A stretch of 47,785 nt of DNA from a virus (IMGVR_UViG_2529292853_000006); one strand, 5' to 3'; positions 25,156 through 31,918 are shown, counted from the first letter of the stretch. Notes: a model not told the origin generated them from the letters alone. Translations and numbers: made by a program.

Positions 25156-25179
25156 GTCCGCTTTGAGCGAGGAGCGGAC
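25156..25179. repeat. palindromic GTCCGCT...AGCGGAC motif, copy 1 of 3
   Basis: Perfect 7-bp arms with a 10-nt loop, in the intergenic region upstream of the MFS gene. Confidence 0.5.
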
Positions 25180-25395
25180 CAAACCCGGCCAACTGACTCT
25201 TAAAGGGGCCGCAGGAATTTTTCGTCTGAACTTTCGAAGCTCCTCTCCCTGAAGACAGAAAACTTCTGTGTGCTGTGGGAATATTGAATCTTTGCCTTAG
25301 ATATAAATAATTTTATCCCGCCTGAAGTTTACATTATTTTATTTATCTGTTTTTCTAAATCAGACTGCACTCCTTACTTAAATCAGGAGCCAGTC

Positions 25396-26595
25396 ATGCC
25401 ATTTGTTATTTATGTGTTTACTATCAGTGCCTTTGCGCTCGGACTCGCGGAATTTGTCCCCATTGGGCTGACAGACGTTATGGCTCAGGGGTTGTGTGTG
25501 GGTGTGGAGCAGACCGGGGCAGCGGTTACAACCTATGCACTGGGGGCAACGTTCGCGGCACCCGTACTGTCTGCGCTGACAGCAAGCTGGAGCCGGAAAA
25601 ATGTAATGCTTACAACTGCCGTTGTGTTTACTGCCGGTAGTCTGGCGGCCGCGTTTGCAGCCACATTACCTCAGCTCCTGTTAGCGCGGTTCATTGCTGG
25701 TCTGGGACACGGCCTGTTTCTGGCTGCGGCATCCAGTACCGCAGCTCGTCTTGCTGGACCGGGTAAAGCAGGCAGAGCGGTGGCTGTGGGATTTGGTGGC
25801 TTTACTCTGGCGATGGCAATCGGCGTACCGCTGAGTACATGGTTGGGGGGGGTGGTCTCATGGCGTCCAGTTCTCGGCGCTATTGCCGCTTTTGGCGCGT
25901 TCGGATTCCTTGGACTGTTGTTCGGTATGAAAGATCCCGTACGCAGCGTGCCCGGTGAACATAGTGACTCAGCAATGCAGAATATCGGCATGCTGTTTAA
26001 CCGTAAGTTGCTGGCCGGCGCGCTGGTTACGGTGCTGGCGTATGCAGGCTCGTTTACGGATTACACCTTTATCGCACCTATTCTGACGCAGGTGACAGGG
26101 GTTACCGGAGCAACGGTGAGTCTGTTTATGCTGGTTTACGGTATTACAGCTGCGGTAGGTAATATTCTTGGTGGGAAACTTACCGACAGCATGGGGGTTA
26201 ATCGTGCCAATATACTCATCATTAGCGGCATTGTTGTTGTCGTGCTTGGTATGTGGCTGCTGTCATCCTCACCGGTGAGCATGGGCATTCTGGTTGCGCT
26301 ACTGGGTATGGTGACATTTGCCGCAGTGCCGGCACTGCAGGCCCGTCTGATTGGTGTCGCTGAGCAACATGCTCCTCATGCGCATGGTGTTGCTGCCGGC
26401 CTGAATATTGCGGGCTTCAACTCAGGTATAGCGCTGGGATCAGTACTGGGCAGCATTACTATAAGCCACGCCGGTATCGTGTATACCGGTATCAGCGGTG
26501 CGATTGTTTCTCTGCTCGGCCTGCTGTTGCTGCTTGCACAAATCCGTCGCAGCCACAGTCGTAAATTTCAACAGGTTAAAATCGTAGGCCAGTAA
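25396..26595 (+). CDS. MFS transporter (YdhP/YdeE-like, DHA1-type)
   Basis: 399-aa, about 12-TM protein; GC-rich relative to the phage genes. Confidence 0.8.
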   Translation: MPFVIYVFTISAFALGLAEFVPIGLTDVMAQGLCVGVEQTGAAVTTYALGATFAAPVLSALTASWSRKNVMLTTAVVFTAGSLAAAFAATLPQLLLARFIAGLGHGLFLAAASSTAARLAGPGKAGRAVAVGFGGFTLAMAIGVPLSTWLGGVVSWRPVLGAIAAFGAFGFLGLLFGMKDPVRSVPGEHSDSAMQNIGMLFNRKLLAGALVTVLAYAGSFTDYTFIAPILTQVTGVTGATVSLFMLVYGITAAVGNILGGKLTDSMGVNRANILIISGIVVVVLGMWLLSSSPVSMGILVALLGMVTFAAVPALQARLIGVAEQHAPHAHGVAAGLNIAGFNSGIALGSVLGSITISHAGIVYTGISGAIVSLLGLLLLLAQIRRSHSRKFQQVKIVGQ

Positions 26596-26606
26596 AGGGA
26601 GGTTAT

Positions 26607-27299
26607 ATGCTTACCCGTGAAAATATGCTTAATGGCACATTTGTCAGGGTGCATGAAGCGCTGCTCCCGGCGAATATGCTCTGGGACGCTGAAAAAATAC
26701 GCGCATCAATGAACTCTACTCTGGAGGAGCGCCCGACGGGTGCTCCTGTCTGGATATTTGCCTACGGGTCATTGATGTGGAATCCCGTGCTGGCGATTGA
26801 AGAAATGCAACGGGCCCGTCTGAAAGGATGGCAGCGCAGTTTCTGCATTCGTTTGATATCCGGACGAGCGACTCCTGATGTCCCCGGCAGGATGTTATCG
26901 CTCGACGAAGGTGGAATTACCGAAGGTATTGCGTTCAGACTGCCGGAATCGACTCTTATTAATGAGCTGGAAATTGTCTGGACGCGCGAGATGATAACCG
27001 GTCTTTACCGTCCGGTCTGGGCAGACGTTTCGCTAGGAAACGGTAAGGAAATTCAGGCGCTGGCTTTCGTATCAGACAGACTGCATCCGCATTATGAACA
27101 GGACAATCTTACAGCGACCGTAGCGTTGAGCATCGCATCTGCCCGTGGAGACATTGGCACGAATGCAGATTATGTATGGAAACTGCAGGCCACTCTGGGT
27201 GCGTTGGGAATACGGGATGATTACGTGAGTGAACTGGCCCTTGCTCTGCATGAGGCTCCCTGTAACGATAAACTTCATCAGCGAGGCGCTTCACTATGA
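26607..27299 (+). CDS. ChaC-like gamma-glutamylcyclotransferase
   Basis: 230 aa; YGSLMWNP motif and overall similarity to E. coli ChaC as recalled. Confidence 0.8.
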   Translation: MLTRENMLNGTFVRVHEALLPANMLWDAEKIRASMNSTLEERPTGAPVWIFAYGSLMWNPVLAIEEMQRARLKGWQRSFCIRLISGRATPDVPGRMLSLDEGGITEGIAFRLPESTLINELEIVWTREMITGLYRPVWADVSLGNGKEIQALAFVSDRLHPHYEQDNLTATVALSIASARGDIGTNADYVWKLQATLGALGIRDDYVSELALALHEAPCNDKLHQRGASL

Positions 27300-29641: not shown

Positions 29642-29648
29642 GTTGCTG

Positions 29649-31652
29649 TTAACGAACCAGATGCAGGAAGTGCAGGTGTTTTTCGTACTGGTCCAGTATG
29701 TCATTAATCAGCTGTTCCTGATTCCAGCCCATTACATCATAATTTTGGCCGCCCTCTTTGAGATAGACTTCAGCGCGATAATATCGATGTTGTTCACTCT
29801 GCTGCTCATCATTATCCAGCGCAGCGAGCGCGAAGGTCGGTGAGTTATACCCGCGAAGCCTCACTTCATATATATAATTCAGCTCGTTGCCCAAATCGAC
29901 TTCAAGGCGAATACGATCCTCGGCGGCGTCACTGATGTGGCTTATCGTTCCCTGCTTGTTAAGTTCCTCCTGAACCAGCGTCATGGCGGGGTGGATAATG
30001 TCGTCCATAAAACGTTTCACAAGAGAGCGCTTCGGCAAATACGCGATATTGCGTAACCTTCTCTGCCAGGGAATTGGGTTACGTGCAGCCGTAGGAGCAA
30101 TAGTCGCCATGCTAAGGCTTTCACGCTTGGTCAAATCCCGACGCAGGGCTTTTAACAGTCCGTATATGGATATTAATAAGATAACTGAGAAGGGCAATGC
30201 ACTCGCTATCGTTACGGTTTGCAACGCACTCAGCCCCCCTGCGATCAGCAGGGCAATAGCAACAACGCCCATGAGCGATGCCCAGAAAATTCGCTGCCAG
30301 ACGGGCGTGTTTGCCACCCCACCTGATGCCAGAGTATCCACAACCATTGCCCCCGAATCAGCAGACGTTACAAAGAAGACGATGACCATCGCCATTGCAA
30401 TGAATGACAGCACGGAAGAGAACGGGAAATGCTCCAGGAAATTAAACAGGGCAAGCGCAACATCCTGCTGAACGGTATTGGCGAGGTCAGTGGCGCCCTG
30501 GTTCATGATGAGATAGATGGCGCTGTTTCCAAACACCGTCATCCACATGAGCGTAAAGCCGGCGGGAACAAACAACACGCCAGTCACGAACTCACGAATT
30601 GTCCTGCCGCGGGAAACGCGTGCAATGAACATACCTACAAACGGCGACCATGAAAGCCACCATCCCCAGTATAATAATGTCCAGCCCCCCAGCCAGTTGC
30701 TCGACTTGGGTTCATACGCGTAAAGGTTGAACGTTTTACTCACCAGTTCCGACAGATAACCACCCGTATTTTCCACAAATGACTTCAGCAGAAGCACAGT
30801 GGGACCCAGGCACAAGACCAGCGCCAGGAGCAACACCGCCAGGCCCAGATTAAGCTCAGACAGGATGCGTATTCCCTTGTCCAGGCCGGACACCACCGAA
30901 ATCGTCGCTAACCCCGTGATGACCACGATCAAAATGACCTGTACCGTTTCATTGATGGGCACGCCGAAAAGATGGTTCAAACCGGCATTCACCTGCAATA
31001 CACCGTAACCCAGCGATGTTGCAACGCCAAAGACAGTGCCTATCACGGCGAAGATATCAACCGCGTGGCCTATAGGCCCGTAAATGCGATCGCCGATAAT
31101 GGGATAGAGCGCAGAACGCAGCGTTAAAGGCAGACCGTGACGGTAACTGAAAAAGGCCAGAATCAGCGCCACGATGGCATAAATTGCCCATGCGTGCAGA
31201 CCCCAGTGGAAGAACGTCAGGCGCATGGCTTCCTTCGCTGCCGCAACGGTCTCTGGAGTGCCGACAGGTGGCGAAAGATAATGCATCACAGGTTCGGCAA
31301 CGCCAAAGAACATCAGGCCGATCCCCATCCCTGCCGAAAAAAGCATCGCGAACCAGGAGTGGTAGCTGAAATCAGGCTGCGCATGGTCTGGGCCCAGCTT
31401 TATATCACCGTAACGTGAGAGTCCAAGGAACGTGACGCTCAGTAAAATCAGGGCCACAGCAAGTATGTAGAACCAGCTGGCATTCGTGAAGATTTGTTGC
31501 TGAAGTAGTTTAAAATTTTTGTCGGCGACATCCGGGAATACGGCGGCAAAGGCGACAAGAAGGAAAATTAGCAAAGCAGATGTAAAGAATACCGCTTTGT
31601 TAATCTGGCTTGTAGACTTCTTTGGGGTTGTATCATTTTCACTCATAATCAT
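29649..31652 (-). CDS. BCCT-family transporter (BetT-like)
   Basis: 667 aa; strong similarity along the length to E. coli BetT as recalled, including the C-terminal ILDQYEKHL.F.HL motif; no betABI nearby. Confidence 0.85.
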   Translation of the reverse strand: MIMSENDTTPKKSTSQINKAVFFTSALLIFLLVAFAAVFPDVADKNFKLLQQQIFTNASWFYILAVALILLSVTFLGLSRYGDIKLGPDHAQPDFSYHSWFAMLFSAGMGIGLMFFGVAEPVMHYLSPPVGTPETVAAAKEAMRLTFFHWGLHAWAIYAIVALILAFFSYRHGLPLTLRSALYPIIGDRIYGPIGHAVDIFAVIGTVFGVATSLGYGVLQVNAGLNHLFGVPINETVQVILIVVITGLATISVVSGLDKGIRILSELNLGLAVLLLALVLCLGPTVLLLKSFVENTGGYLSELVSKTFNLYAYEPKSSNWLGGWTLLYWGWWLSWSPFVGMFIARVSRGRTIREFVTGVLFVPAGFTLMWMTVFGNSAIYLIMNQGATDLANTVQQDVALALFNFLEHFPFSSVLSFIAMAMVIVFFVTSADSGAMVVDTLASGGVANTPVWQRIFWASLMGVVAIALLIAGGLSALQTVTIASALPFSVILLISIYGLLKALRRDLTKRESLSMATIAPTAARNPIPWQRRLRNIAYLPKRSLVKRFMDDIIHPAMTLVQEELNKQGTISHISDAAEDRIRLEVDLGNELNYIYEVRLRGYNSPTFALAALDNDEQQSEQHRYYRAEVYLKEGGQNYDVMGWNQEQLINDILDQYEKHLHFLHLVR

Positions 31653-31894
31653 TTATTCCATTAATTAAATCCGCACTGGATAGAAGGTACTACCTCTCAC
31701 AGAGTAGCAAAGTTCAACTGGCTATGCGGGGTTAATCGGAATGCATGGTGGAATGAGTGCCGATACAAATCATCCTATATTCTAAGGAGTTTTAAGTTAC
31801 TCAGCCTGCCAATTACTGGGGCATTTAATTTGTATGATCTGTATCAAAGCTGGGATATAAGTTAAGTGAAGTATATTAGGCACGAATTACCAGC

Positions 31895-31918
31895 GTCTGC
31901 TCTTGGCACAAAGCGGAC
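31895..31918. repeat. palindromic GTCTGCT-cttggcaca-AGCGGAC motif, copy 3 of 3
   Basis: Same arms as the other two copies with the arms exchanged; intergenic. Confidence 0.5.

Follow-up and report, generated by a model that had tools for sequence, protein, structure and literature searches.

Palindromic 24-bp units bounding cargo modules in a Rac-like Escherichia coli prophage are probable crossover sites of a cassette-exchange system with a candidate small tyrosine recombinase

Integrons combine a tyrosine recombinase gene and its adjacent dedicated site with arrays of varied cassettes that can be exchanged and often contain adaptive or anti-phage genes; circles with one site are inserted at a site already present. 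Their integrase, IntI, is about 320 amino acids (aa) long and contains an IntI-specific insertion; their attC sites are folded sequences of 60–140 bp with RYYYAAC/GTTRRRY boxes. In Acinetobacter plasmids, XerC/XerD-dependent pdif/dif modules consist of genes located between short inverted sites. In engineered cassette exchange, heterospecific lox or FRT sites with shared arms and incompatible spacers are inverted around a cassette, an arrangement that blocks excision and inversion and allows swapping. The sfx site of the R64 shufflon has a 7-bp core, GTGCCAA, and a conserved right arm, TCCGGTACGTGG, while its left arm is not conserved (PMC4176322). Here, we compare with these systems three palindromic 24-bp units of a 47,785-bp stretch of viral origin (IMGVR_UViG_2529292853_000006; the whole stretch is hereafter called the window). 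Our analysis indicates, with a probability of about 0.7, that the units are crossover sites of a widespread small-integrase system swapping cassettes with anti-phage, metabolic, or transport genes among prophages, plasmids, and genomic islands.

The three units were located as follows:

25156–25179, minus strand: unit 1, GTCCGCTTTGAGCGAGGAGCGGAC; class A, centre TCGCTCA read on the minus strand, perfect arms GTCCGCT/AGCGGAC.
28222–28245, plus strand: unit 2, GTCCGCTTCTGGCACAAAGCAGAC; class B, centre TGGCACA, hybrid site.
31895–31918, plus strand: unit 3, GTCTGCTCTTGGCACAAAGCGGAC; class B, hybrid site.

The pattern GTCYGCT-N10-AGCRGAC, with up to one mismatch, had exactly three matches in the window, namely units 1–3, while 0.02 matches were expected by chance (mean of 100 shuffles) and none of the 100 shuffles reached three. 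Both this comparison and direct reading of the sequence confirmed the units at 25156, 28222, and 31895, which had been reported in an earlier prediction made from the sequence alone (hereafter, the original prediction). Each of them was intergenic on the map of open reading frames (ORFs) of the window. The stretch TGGCACAAAGC was common to units 2 and 3, the centre of which is the TGGCACA "loop" that they had been predicted to share; their arms were indeed exchanged, with the C/T and A/G arm positions swapped. The centre of unit 1, TGAGCGA, is the reverse complement of TCGCTCA, i.e., unit 1 is the same type of unit in the opposite orientation, and it was identical to the reverse complement of unit 3 at 20 of 24 positions. 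The geometry of a 7-bp arm, 10 bp, and a second 7-bp arm was constant in the three window copies and in more than 400 relatives. Loop lengths varying from 8 to 10 nt, which had been taken to argue against a transcription-factor site of fixed spacing, proved to result from incidental extra pairs; the distance between the arms does not vary, as would be expected of a duplex site bound by a protein. At 20516–20539, in the intergenic gap between two minus-strand ORFs (20074–20469 and 20620–21048) belonging to the late/lysis region, another sequence resembling the units was found, GTCCGCCACTGGCTCAGAGCTGAC, with one mismatch in each arm and the hybrid centre TGGCTCA; it may be either a chance match or what is left of a decayed site at a second cargo slot.

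Units 1–3 were the exact edges of two cargo modules, each of which recurred in unrelated plasmids. The block and its flank had the following features:

25180–28221, plus strand: cargo of cassette 1 (from ORFs, annotation, and Pfam families).
25396–26595: MFS transporter, cassette 1.
26607–27299: gamma-glutamylcyclotransferase/ChaC-like protein, cassette 1.
27296–28177: LysR regulator, cassette 1.
28246–31894, minus strand: cargo of module 2 (the BetT module), bounded by two direct class B units.
28308–29600: DUF2254 protein, module 2.
29649–31652: BCCT/BetT choline transporter, module 2.
31919–31986, no strand assigned: phage backbone flank outside the B site, AACCACGCTAGCTCTACCCTGTGCCACAAA..., containing CTGTGCCA.

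The segment of cassette 1 was 92.3% identical to a part of the Klebsiella IncFIB/FII plasmid LR890357, and the match covered exactly positions 25155–28246; the plasmid copy was bounded by an inverted A and a direct B unit, with GTCCGCTATGAGCGAAGAGCAGAC and GTCCGCTCTTGGCACAAAGCAGAC as its flanking sequences. For the BetT module, a search of 72,556 plasmids gave a 99.8% match and 68 records at ≥99% identity; the plasmid match spanned exactly 28220–31919, beginning with the first base of unit 2 and ending with the last of unit 3. In pPO125 (IncY) and in a Klebsiella IncFIA plasmid, the flanks of the BetT module were unrelated to the window and the alignments broke at the outer edges of the units, the left unit differing from that of the window in its outer half alone (GCCCGCTTT versus GTCCGCTTC). 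The window, pPO125, and five prophage loci (L024, L045, L058, L068, and L102 of our set) all had the same spacing of 3673 bp between the two B units. In another lambdoid prophage, the backbone homology ended at position 25170, in the middle of unit 1, and was followed by another gene, a B-type unit, and the DUF977 gene. The part of the original prediction according to which the units form a genuine repeat family marking cargo-gene boundaries as recombination footprints is strongly supported by the comparative evidence, while its reading as RNA hairpins or REP-like elements is not (see below).

The window is a segment of an E. coli chromosome with a Rac-like lambdoid prophage (recE, recT, kilR, sieB, xisR, and intR adjoining ttcA). 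The cargo block with the units lies between the replication module (replisome organiser, DUF977) and nin-like genes (DUF1367, DUF1364, DUF1133). The outer half of unit 1, the left boundary of the block, abuts conserved phage backbone (..ctaaccttcta); unit 3 is followed by phage backbone, aaccacgctagc.., 69 nt downstream of the DUF977 gene, and this flank (31919–31986) was identical or nearly identical in many prophages with different cargo. Several other observations concern the same region. In a near-identical prophage of E. coli EC0885 (L003, 7309–9922), an IS3-family insertion splits the DUF2254 gene of the BetT module. Some part of positions 24000–33000 was matched at 90–95% identity by 1331 plasmid records, mostly from Klebsiella, which were not accounted for by the MFS-ChaC-LysR module (88 records by itself). 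Positions 16496–19327 (trkG, lysis genes, DUF1317) were 98.6% identical to segments of large Citrobacter and E. coli plasmids; no units bounded this shared block.

Further evidence came from the way in which the two halves of a unit are linked to its flanks. The DNA outside the units is conserved phage backbone, of which there are two main versions, and the inside flanks are cargo-specific. The flanks on the nin side were joined to class A in about 56 of 56 cases and never to class B; those on the DUF977 side were joined to class B in about 58 of 58 cases and never to class A. The backbone flank TAGAAGGTTAGC was always joined to class A. When two units agreed in the outside flank but not in the inside one (253 pairs for A, 213 for B), their differences were almost confined to unit positions 1–9, and when they agreed in the inside flank but not in the outside one, the differences fell chiefly on positions 17 and 21; positions 10–16 almost never differed in either set. 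Since positions 1–9 track the cargo and positions 17–24 the backbone, exchange is placed inside the invariant centre. The BetT module illustrates this arrangement: next to five different left neighbours, the unit has each neighbour's own positions 1–9 (GCCCGCTTT, GTCCGCTTC, GTCCGCTCA, GTCCGCTAC, and TTCCGCTCC), with AAGCAGAC being constant, and with three right neighbours, position 17 goes with the backbone. In the window, unit 2 combines positions 1–9 of cassette 1 (GTCCGCTTC) with positions 17–24 of the BetT module (AAGCAGAC), and unit 3 combines positions 1–9 of the BetT module (GTCTGCTCT) with positions 17–24 of the phage backbone (AAGCGGAC).

The exchanged arms of units 2 and 3 are explained by hybrid sites left after a B × B insertion: a circle with the site GTCTGCT-CT-TGGCACA-A-AGCAGAC entering a B site with GTCCGCT...AGCGGAC arms would give exactly units 2 and 3, and two direct B units are what is expected for a one-B-site circle inserted at a B site. 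The predicted strand asymmetry of folding was reproduced by the computed energies (plus and minus strand, respectively: −5.2 and −11.3 kcal/mol for unit 2, −8.3 and −7.6 kcal/mol for unit 3); the pattern of one hairpin per strand arises because each unit has one half derived from a neighbour and one derived from the module. The arms stand at a fixed spacing around an asymmetric centre of 6–8 bp, and flanking DNA is exchanged within this central region, as judged by comparison; both are features of core-type sites of tyrosine recombinases, such as lox, FRT, and dif. On this comparison, the switch of linkage is the trace that site-specific recombination leaves when the crossover lies in the centre.

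The family was examined in more than 240 loci of phages and genomes. Scans with the exact pattern GTCYGCTNNTSGCWCANAGCRGAC retrieved at least 120 contigs from IMG/VR and at least 120 from a set with one genome per species, while about four matches would be expected at random for 596 Gb, by our own estimate. Among the prophage matches listed, two discrete centres were found, TCGCTCA of class A (112 units) and TGGCACA of class B (105 units), and no more than two units had mixed centres, although the search pattern permitted all four combinations. The extended consensus of the site was A-n-GTCCGCT..AGCGGAC-a-T with an invariant centre, the asymmetry of which makes the orientation of each unit readable. 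The usual cassette among the matches listed was 0.3–3.7 kb long and lay between an inverted A and a direct B unit, and tandem arrays had a conserved 18-nt linker, with the starts of A and B separated by 42 bp. The BetT module, with its two direct B units, is an exception to this layout. The inverted A/B architecture was retained throughout the Enterobacterales sampled (Pantoea, Erwinia, Phytobacter, Citrobacter, Klebsiella, Yokenella, Serratia, Proteus, Yersinia, and others), where the cassettes often held LysR-plus-oxidoreductase modules.

About 120 prophage loci listed contained some 70 distinct cassettes in one prophage slot, with one to four genes on either strand. Defence genes identified with Pfam and PADLOC included retron RT-Toprim, RT-TIR, DRT UG17, TIR, SIR2, HEPN, SLATT, and S_4TM; a CAP12-type TIR effector, a DpnII-type restriction enzyme, and an adenosine deaminase were also encoded, as were LysR, MFS, GNAT, and short-chain dehydrogenase proteins among the accessory cargo. 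By its contents, the slot is thus a hotspot of defence and accessory genes. Its smallest occupant was 272 bp long, with a truncated A site. Three observations concern the surroundings of the sites. An inner end of about 27 nt beside the A site, TTGATTCACACAGAATGCTGTTAGCAAT|GTCCGC, was common to many unrelated cassettes (L009, L011, L012, L019, L020, L037, and L040), which suggests an extended A-side element, e.g., an accessory site, promoter, or terminator. The sequence CTGTGCCA, the inverse of the B centre, occurred about 20 nt outside B (window 31919–31950 and the equivalent flanks of L013–L048). In a second type of backbone, the outer flanks of A and B both started with TGTCAGATT, forming a longer inverted repeat around the slot.

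A candidate enzyme was found in plasmid pPO125. To the left of the BetT module, at a distance of 3.7 kb, this plasmid has a third unit, and a 269-aa protein, a 202-aa tyrosine recombinase, and a 476-aa protein are encoded between that unit and the module; the recombinase gene occupies the linker between two cassettes and is not a part of either. Downstream of its stop codon there was a B-type site with the gene-proximal arm replaced, GTCCGCTnnTGGCACAG|GGCTGCT, overlapping the hairpin CAGGGCTG...CAGCCCTG; upstream of the gene there was an A-type site with the outer arm AAGGGAC. The sequence GTCCGCTnnTGGCACAG|GGCTGCT was present within about 20 nt of the stop codon in all of the loci inspected, at least 15 in number (relatives with ≥76% identity), while the A-type site was found in several loci and was missing or degenerate in some. 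The same arrangement recurred in prophage L020, in plasmids of Phytobacter, Scandinavium, Pantoea, and Moellerella, in Providencia, Cycloclasticus, and Idiomarina, in eight gut and food metagenome contigs, and in an E. coli island, where such sites separated, in this order, a dynamin-family cassette, the recombinase gene, another cassette, and one with DRT. The recombinase module was present in 770 of 5426 complete E. coli genomes, with homology extending from the B-type site to the A-type centre.

The recombinase was 200–203 aa long and had a single domain match, to the catalytic Phage_integrase domain (PF00589, 64.7 bits with a cut-off of 27.1). The residues R53, K81, H150-x-x-R153, H176, and Y185 were invariant in 14 sequences of 56–92% identity; by its domain and catalytic residues the protein belongs to the tyrosine recombinase superfamily. 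The family is strongly conserved and includes at least 8000 proteins at E < 1e-20. The closest solved structure was XerD, at E = 1e-3 only, and the AlphaFold model, with a mean pLDDT (predicted local distance difference test) of 56.6, was too poor for a fold comparison. Relatives with about 60% identity from soil and marine metagenomes kept the layout of stop codon, hairpin, centre, and (A/G)GCGGAC, the centres being GTGCCA, CCGGCC, or CGACCC. A canonical arm was found downstream of relatives in 24 of 79 windows versus 5.9% of control windows, a five-fold enrichment. The linkage of gene and sites makes the recombinase of about 200 aa (the WP_001752951 family) the probable enzyme of the sites, with binding and catalysis at the units being its putative functions; its identity as the enzyme is somewhat less certain than the cassette system itself.

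Several neighbours of the recombinase are worth mentioning. In Idiomarina sp. X4 (L258, 8001–15534), gcvP, the recombinase gene, a B-type site, a histidine kinase-response regulator-EptA-PAP2-DAGK-sulfatase series, and an A site follow each other. A Providencia island adjacent to the transfer-messenger RNA (L252, 2100–8644) contains LysR, aldo-keto reductase, and flavodoxin cargo together with the recombinase between two direct B-type sites, a layout that would be expected of an excisable element; both cargoes have a "clinical flavour". The 269-aa protein encoded beside the pPO125 recombinase (L001, 249–1280) was Cys-rich and HNH-like by eye, with no Pfam match, and its gene also formed a free-standing A...B cassette of 1032 bp in at least seven prophage loci (L026, L030, L057, L077, L099, L100, and L128).

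Taken together, we propose that the units serve, as duplex DNA, as the core sites of a site-specific recombination system. Their inverted arms of 7–9 bp, (A)nGTCCGCT and AGCGGAC(aT), would bind a recombinase dimer, with strand exchange occurring inside the asymmetric central 6–8 bp. The centres A and B would be heterospecific and would not cross-react, as suggested by the strict separation of the classes, so that paired A × A and B × B crossovers could swap a cassette between replicons. With an inverted A and a direct B at its ends, a single cassette can be neither deleted nor flipped; from a tandem array, a cassette could be released in circular form and be inserted again at any site of class A or B. 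The slot of the window would have first held one A...B cassette (MFS-ChaC-LysR), and the DUF2254-BetT module would have entered later as a one-site circle at B. Because no recombinase gene is present in the window, the small tyrosine recombinase is assumed to act in trans from elsewhere. Going further, the whole may be an integron-like but attC-independent cassette system with a recombinase of about 200 aa, palindromes of 24–28 bp, and mutually incompatible centres (A, B, and further ones), which docks, swaps, and stacks cassettes of one to four genes, many of them with anti-phage systems, in the lambdoid prophage slot, in plasmids, and in islands across Proteobacteria, as a natural form of recombinase-mediated cassette exchange; for this broader formulation, we see about even odds.

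Like integrons, the loci studied here have a tyrosine recombinase gene beside a dedicated site, arrays of diverse exchangeable cassettes between sites, cargo rich in adaptive and anti-phage genes, and, in the BetT module, the trace of a circle inserted at one site. However, the small recombinase matches the catalytic domain alone, its score with the NCBIfam XerA/integron-integrase model was 53.6 bits against a cut-off of 220, and the sites are duplex-type palindromes of 24–28 bp without boxes of the attC kind. Each cassette here has one to four genes, which may point either way and often include a regulator of their own, between two inverted sites of different class, and the recombinase gene is flanked by sites on both sides. 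With neither an IntI-type integrase nor attC boxes, membership in the integrons was rejected.

The pdif modules share with the units the occurrence of one module in varied plasmid contexts, with homology breaking at the sites, and the unit can be read as a 28-bp site of the 11-6-11 form (ATGTCCGCTTT-TGGCAC-AAAGCGGACAT). Unlike pdif, the sites studied here are linked to a dedicated small recombinase and not to host XerCD, have at least two centre classes, and occur also in prophages and chromosomal islands; about 6 of 28 positions were identical to E. coli dif, as counted by eye. A Xer-type 28-bp dif-like site with the XerD arm TTATGTTAAAT was thus rejected on sequence, the geometry alone being compatible. 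The inverted sites with shared arms and incompatible spacers of engineered cassette exchange resemble an A...B cassette in architecture, but here the arrangement would be natural, and the putative heterospecificity of A and B is deduced from their strict separation.

The shufflon was compared at the level of its site. Read as its reverse complement, the B centre becomes TGTGCCA, with n-AGCGGAC next to it, so that GTGCCA is common to the B centre and the sfx core, and the arm is partly similar; as in sfx, the recombinase-adjacent site has one canonical arm. In a Ruegeria relative of the recombinase, GCCAATCCGGAC followed the gene. The shufflon recombinase Rci, with 384 aa, is larger than the small recombinase, and no Rci-like proteins were evident among the tblastn plasmid matches of the latter, which were not a direct test of relationship. 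The shufflon inverts segments in one gene, whereas exchange here is between replicons and no inversion isomers were seen. We regard the shared GTGCCA only as a lead.

Among the alternatives to crossover sites, homologous recombination survives best: the units would be conserved linkers at which RecA, RecET of Rac, or lambda Red exchange modules, with no dedicated recombinase. Modular exchange at linkers is a classical idea for lambdoid phages, which are mosaic; recE and recT are both encoded in the prophage of the window, and conserved phage DNA in the outside flanks could aid exchange. However, identical units bound modules in plasmids and islands with unrelated flanks, and the exchange point falls in the 7-bp centre of a 24-bp site, which is too short and too precise for homology. 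Linkers also give no rationale for two separate centre classes in a fixed inverted arrangement, and the sites are linked to the gene of a recombinase of their own. We consider this explanation unlikely.

Less probable still is the explanation by REP-like (repetitive extragenic palindromic) RNA or single-stranded DNA hairpins, which would stabilise the 3' ends of mRNA or be mobilised by RAYT (REP-associated tyrosine transposase), their coincidence with boundaries resulting from their intergenic location. The units are palindromic and intergenic and fold at −5 to −13 kcal/mol; short intergenic palindromes, at times in inverted doublets, also occur in BIME (bacterial interspersed mosaic elements) and REPIN-RAYT systems, and the inverted A/B doublets 18 nt apart resemble REPIN doublets. 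Yet the arms did not show the compensatory changes of a functional hairpin. At pair 4/21 of 203 prophage units, C-G (99), C-A (59), T-G (25), and T-A (10) were combined independently (Fisher p = 0.44), and the same was true for 272 genome units (Fisher p = 0.31); C-A mismatches occurred in 25–29% of units, mismatches at this pair were tolerated in 25–34%, and T-A was rare. Changes at the other arm pairs broke the pair without compensation, and the most conserved part of the unit was its "loop". The arms, thus, appear to behave as two independent protein-binding half-sites, and a hairpin function is without support.

The other readings of the units as structured elements were likewise not confirmed. 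An Rfam search of the units found no matching family, and at a permissive threshold only the unrelated small RNA (sRNA) STnc100 was obtained; in the window itself, positions 21159–21345 on the minus strand matched this gammaproteobacterial sRNA at 86.6 bits (gathering score of 47). With no compensatory changes of base pairs and no Rfam match, a structured RNA element had no support. Intrinsic terminators were ruled out, since no T-tract follows the GC-rich stem: in a terminator and promoter scan, none of the units was among the terminator-like matches, and no T run was present on either strand, in agreement with the original prediction. A sigma-54 promoter reading of TGGCAC did not fit the GG-N10-GC spacing on inspection and was discarded. 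The comparison with REP/BIME families suggested in the original prediction revealed neither a GTAG head nor a RAYT or IS200-like partner: in the 120 genome loci listed, the genes recurring near units were ordinary transport and metabolic ones, and no recombinase, RAYT, or IS200-like gene was among them. The window had three copies in 47.8 kb, all at module edges, and membership in REP/BIME-RAYT was, therefore, not accepted; unlike REP elements, the units lack structural covariation, have a conserved "loop" in discrete classes, stand in either orientation to the flanking genes, and delimit modules with hybrid junctions. A hairpin would leave the switch of linkage inside the centre unexplained.

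The distribution outside Enterobacterales speaks in favour of REP-like elements. In metagenome-assembled genomes (MAGs) of Hyphomicrobiales, Pseudolabrys, Xanthobacteraceae, and Nitrosomonadaceae, the units were direct and dense, up to 14 per 8 kb; in their abundance in some Alphaproteobacterial MAGs they resemble REP elements, and in these genomes they may be either REP-like repeats or cassette arrays. The MAG unit ATGTCCGCT..AGCGGACAT formed direct clusters with a period of 45/46 bp (L135–L251; e.g., L149 651–846, L217 238–387, L240 112–307, and L169). Its centres were TGGCACA, then TGGGGGT/TGAGGGA, then TGACCCA, in this order. The clusters adjoined ordinary genes of transport and metabolism and were found somewhat more often after the 3' ends of genes (56 vs. 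22).

Operators of a dimeric regulator, or sites of another specific binding protein carried on mobile elements, would explain a palindrome with fixed spacing and independently varying half-sites, with the coincidence with boundaries being secondary. An invariant central 7 bp in two discrete classes is, however, unusual for a spacer, and the units lie at 3' ends, at 5' ends, and between convergent genes alike, with no common regulator alongside; module boundaries and hybrid junctions would be left unexplained, and we find this reading very improbable. Terminal inverted repeats of a cut-and-paste transposon or miniature inverted-repeat transposable element with passenger genes are the least probable of all, despite the inverted and nearly identical 24-bp ends of the cassettes (20/24 for unit 1 vs. 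the reverse complement of unit 3): no target-site duplications were found at the junctions examined and no transposase in the cassettes, the outer half of either end is recipient DNA and not part of the element, and there is a systematic difference between left and right ends at two positions of the centre. The transposon reading was rejected.

Several facts weigh against the interpretation of the units as crossover sites of a cassette system. No recombinase gene was found in the window, nor within 8 kb of the Alphaproteobacterial and Nitrosomonadaceae MAG arrays, which in their density look REP-like and lie outside what the cassette model explains. Recombinase relatives with 45–61% identity on Paraburkholderia, Ruegeria, and Vibrio plasmids had no clear canonical site nearby. 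Clean empty slots were absent from the E. coli genomes and loci examined. Arms of 7–9 bp are short for a tyrosine recombinase site; excision, circles, and integration are postulated here from the comparison of sequences; and the loci of the census were selected for intact units, which biases it towards well-kept sites. What the comparisons show are the module boundaries, the two discrete classes, the architecture of the cassettes, the change of linkage within the centre, and the proximity of the recombinase gene to such sites; the binding and catalysis by the recombinase, the heterospecificity of A and B, and the pathway of exchange are proposed.

We failed to find a description of the motif, the module, or the recombinase in the open-access full-text literature, and a description may exist elsewhere; the cassette system is apparently undescribed so far. 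If confirmed, it would offer a concrete mechanism, including a candidate enzyme and the site on which it would act, for a long-standing puzzle, namely the turnover of prophage "moron" and defence hotspots and the presence of the same cargo in phages, plasmids, and islands. A recombinase of 200 aa with 24-bp sites and naturally heterospecific centres would, if this is true, be an attractive tool for genome engineering. The site motif is a simple searchable marker which delimits cassettes exactly, and searches with it could bring to light unknown genes for defence and accessory functions, in the way that attC sites serve for integrons.

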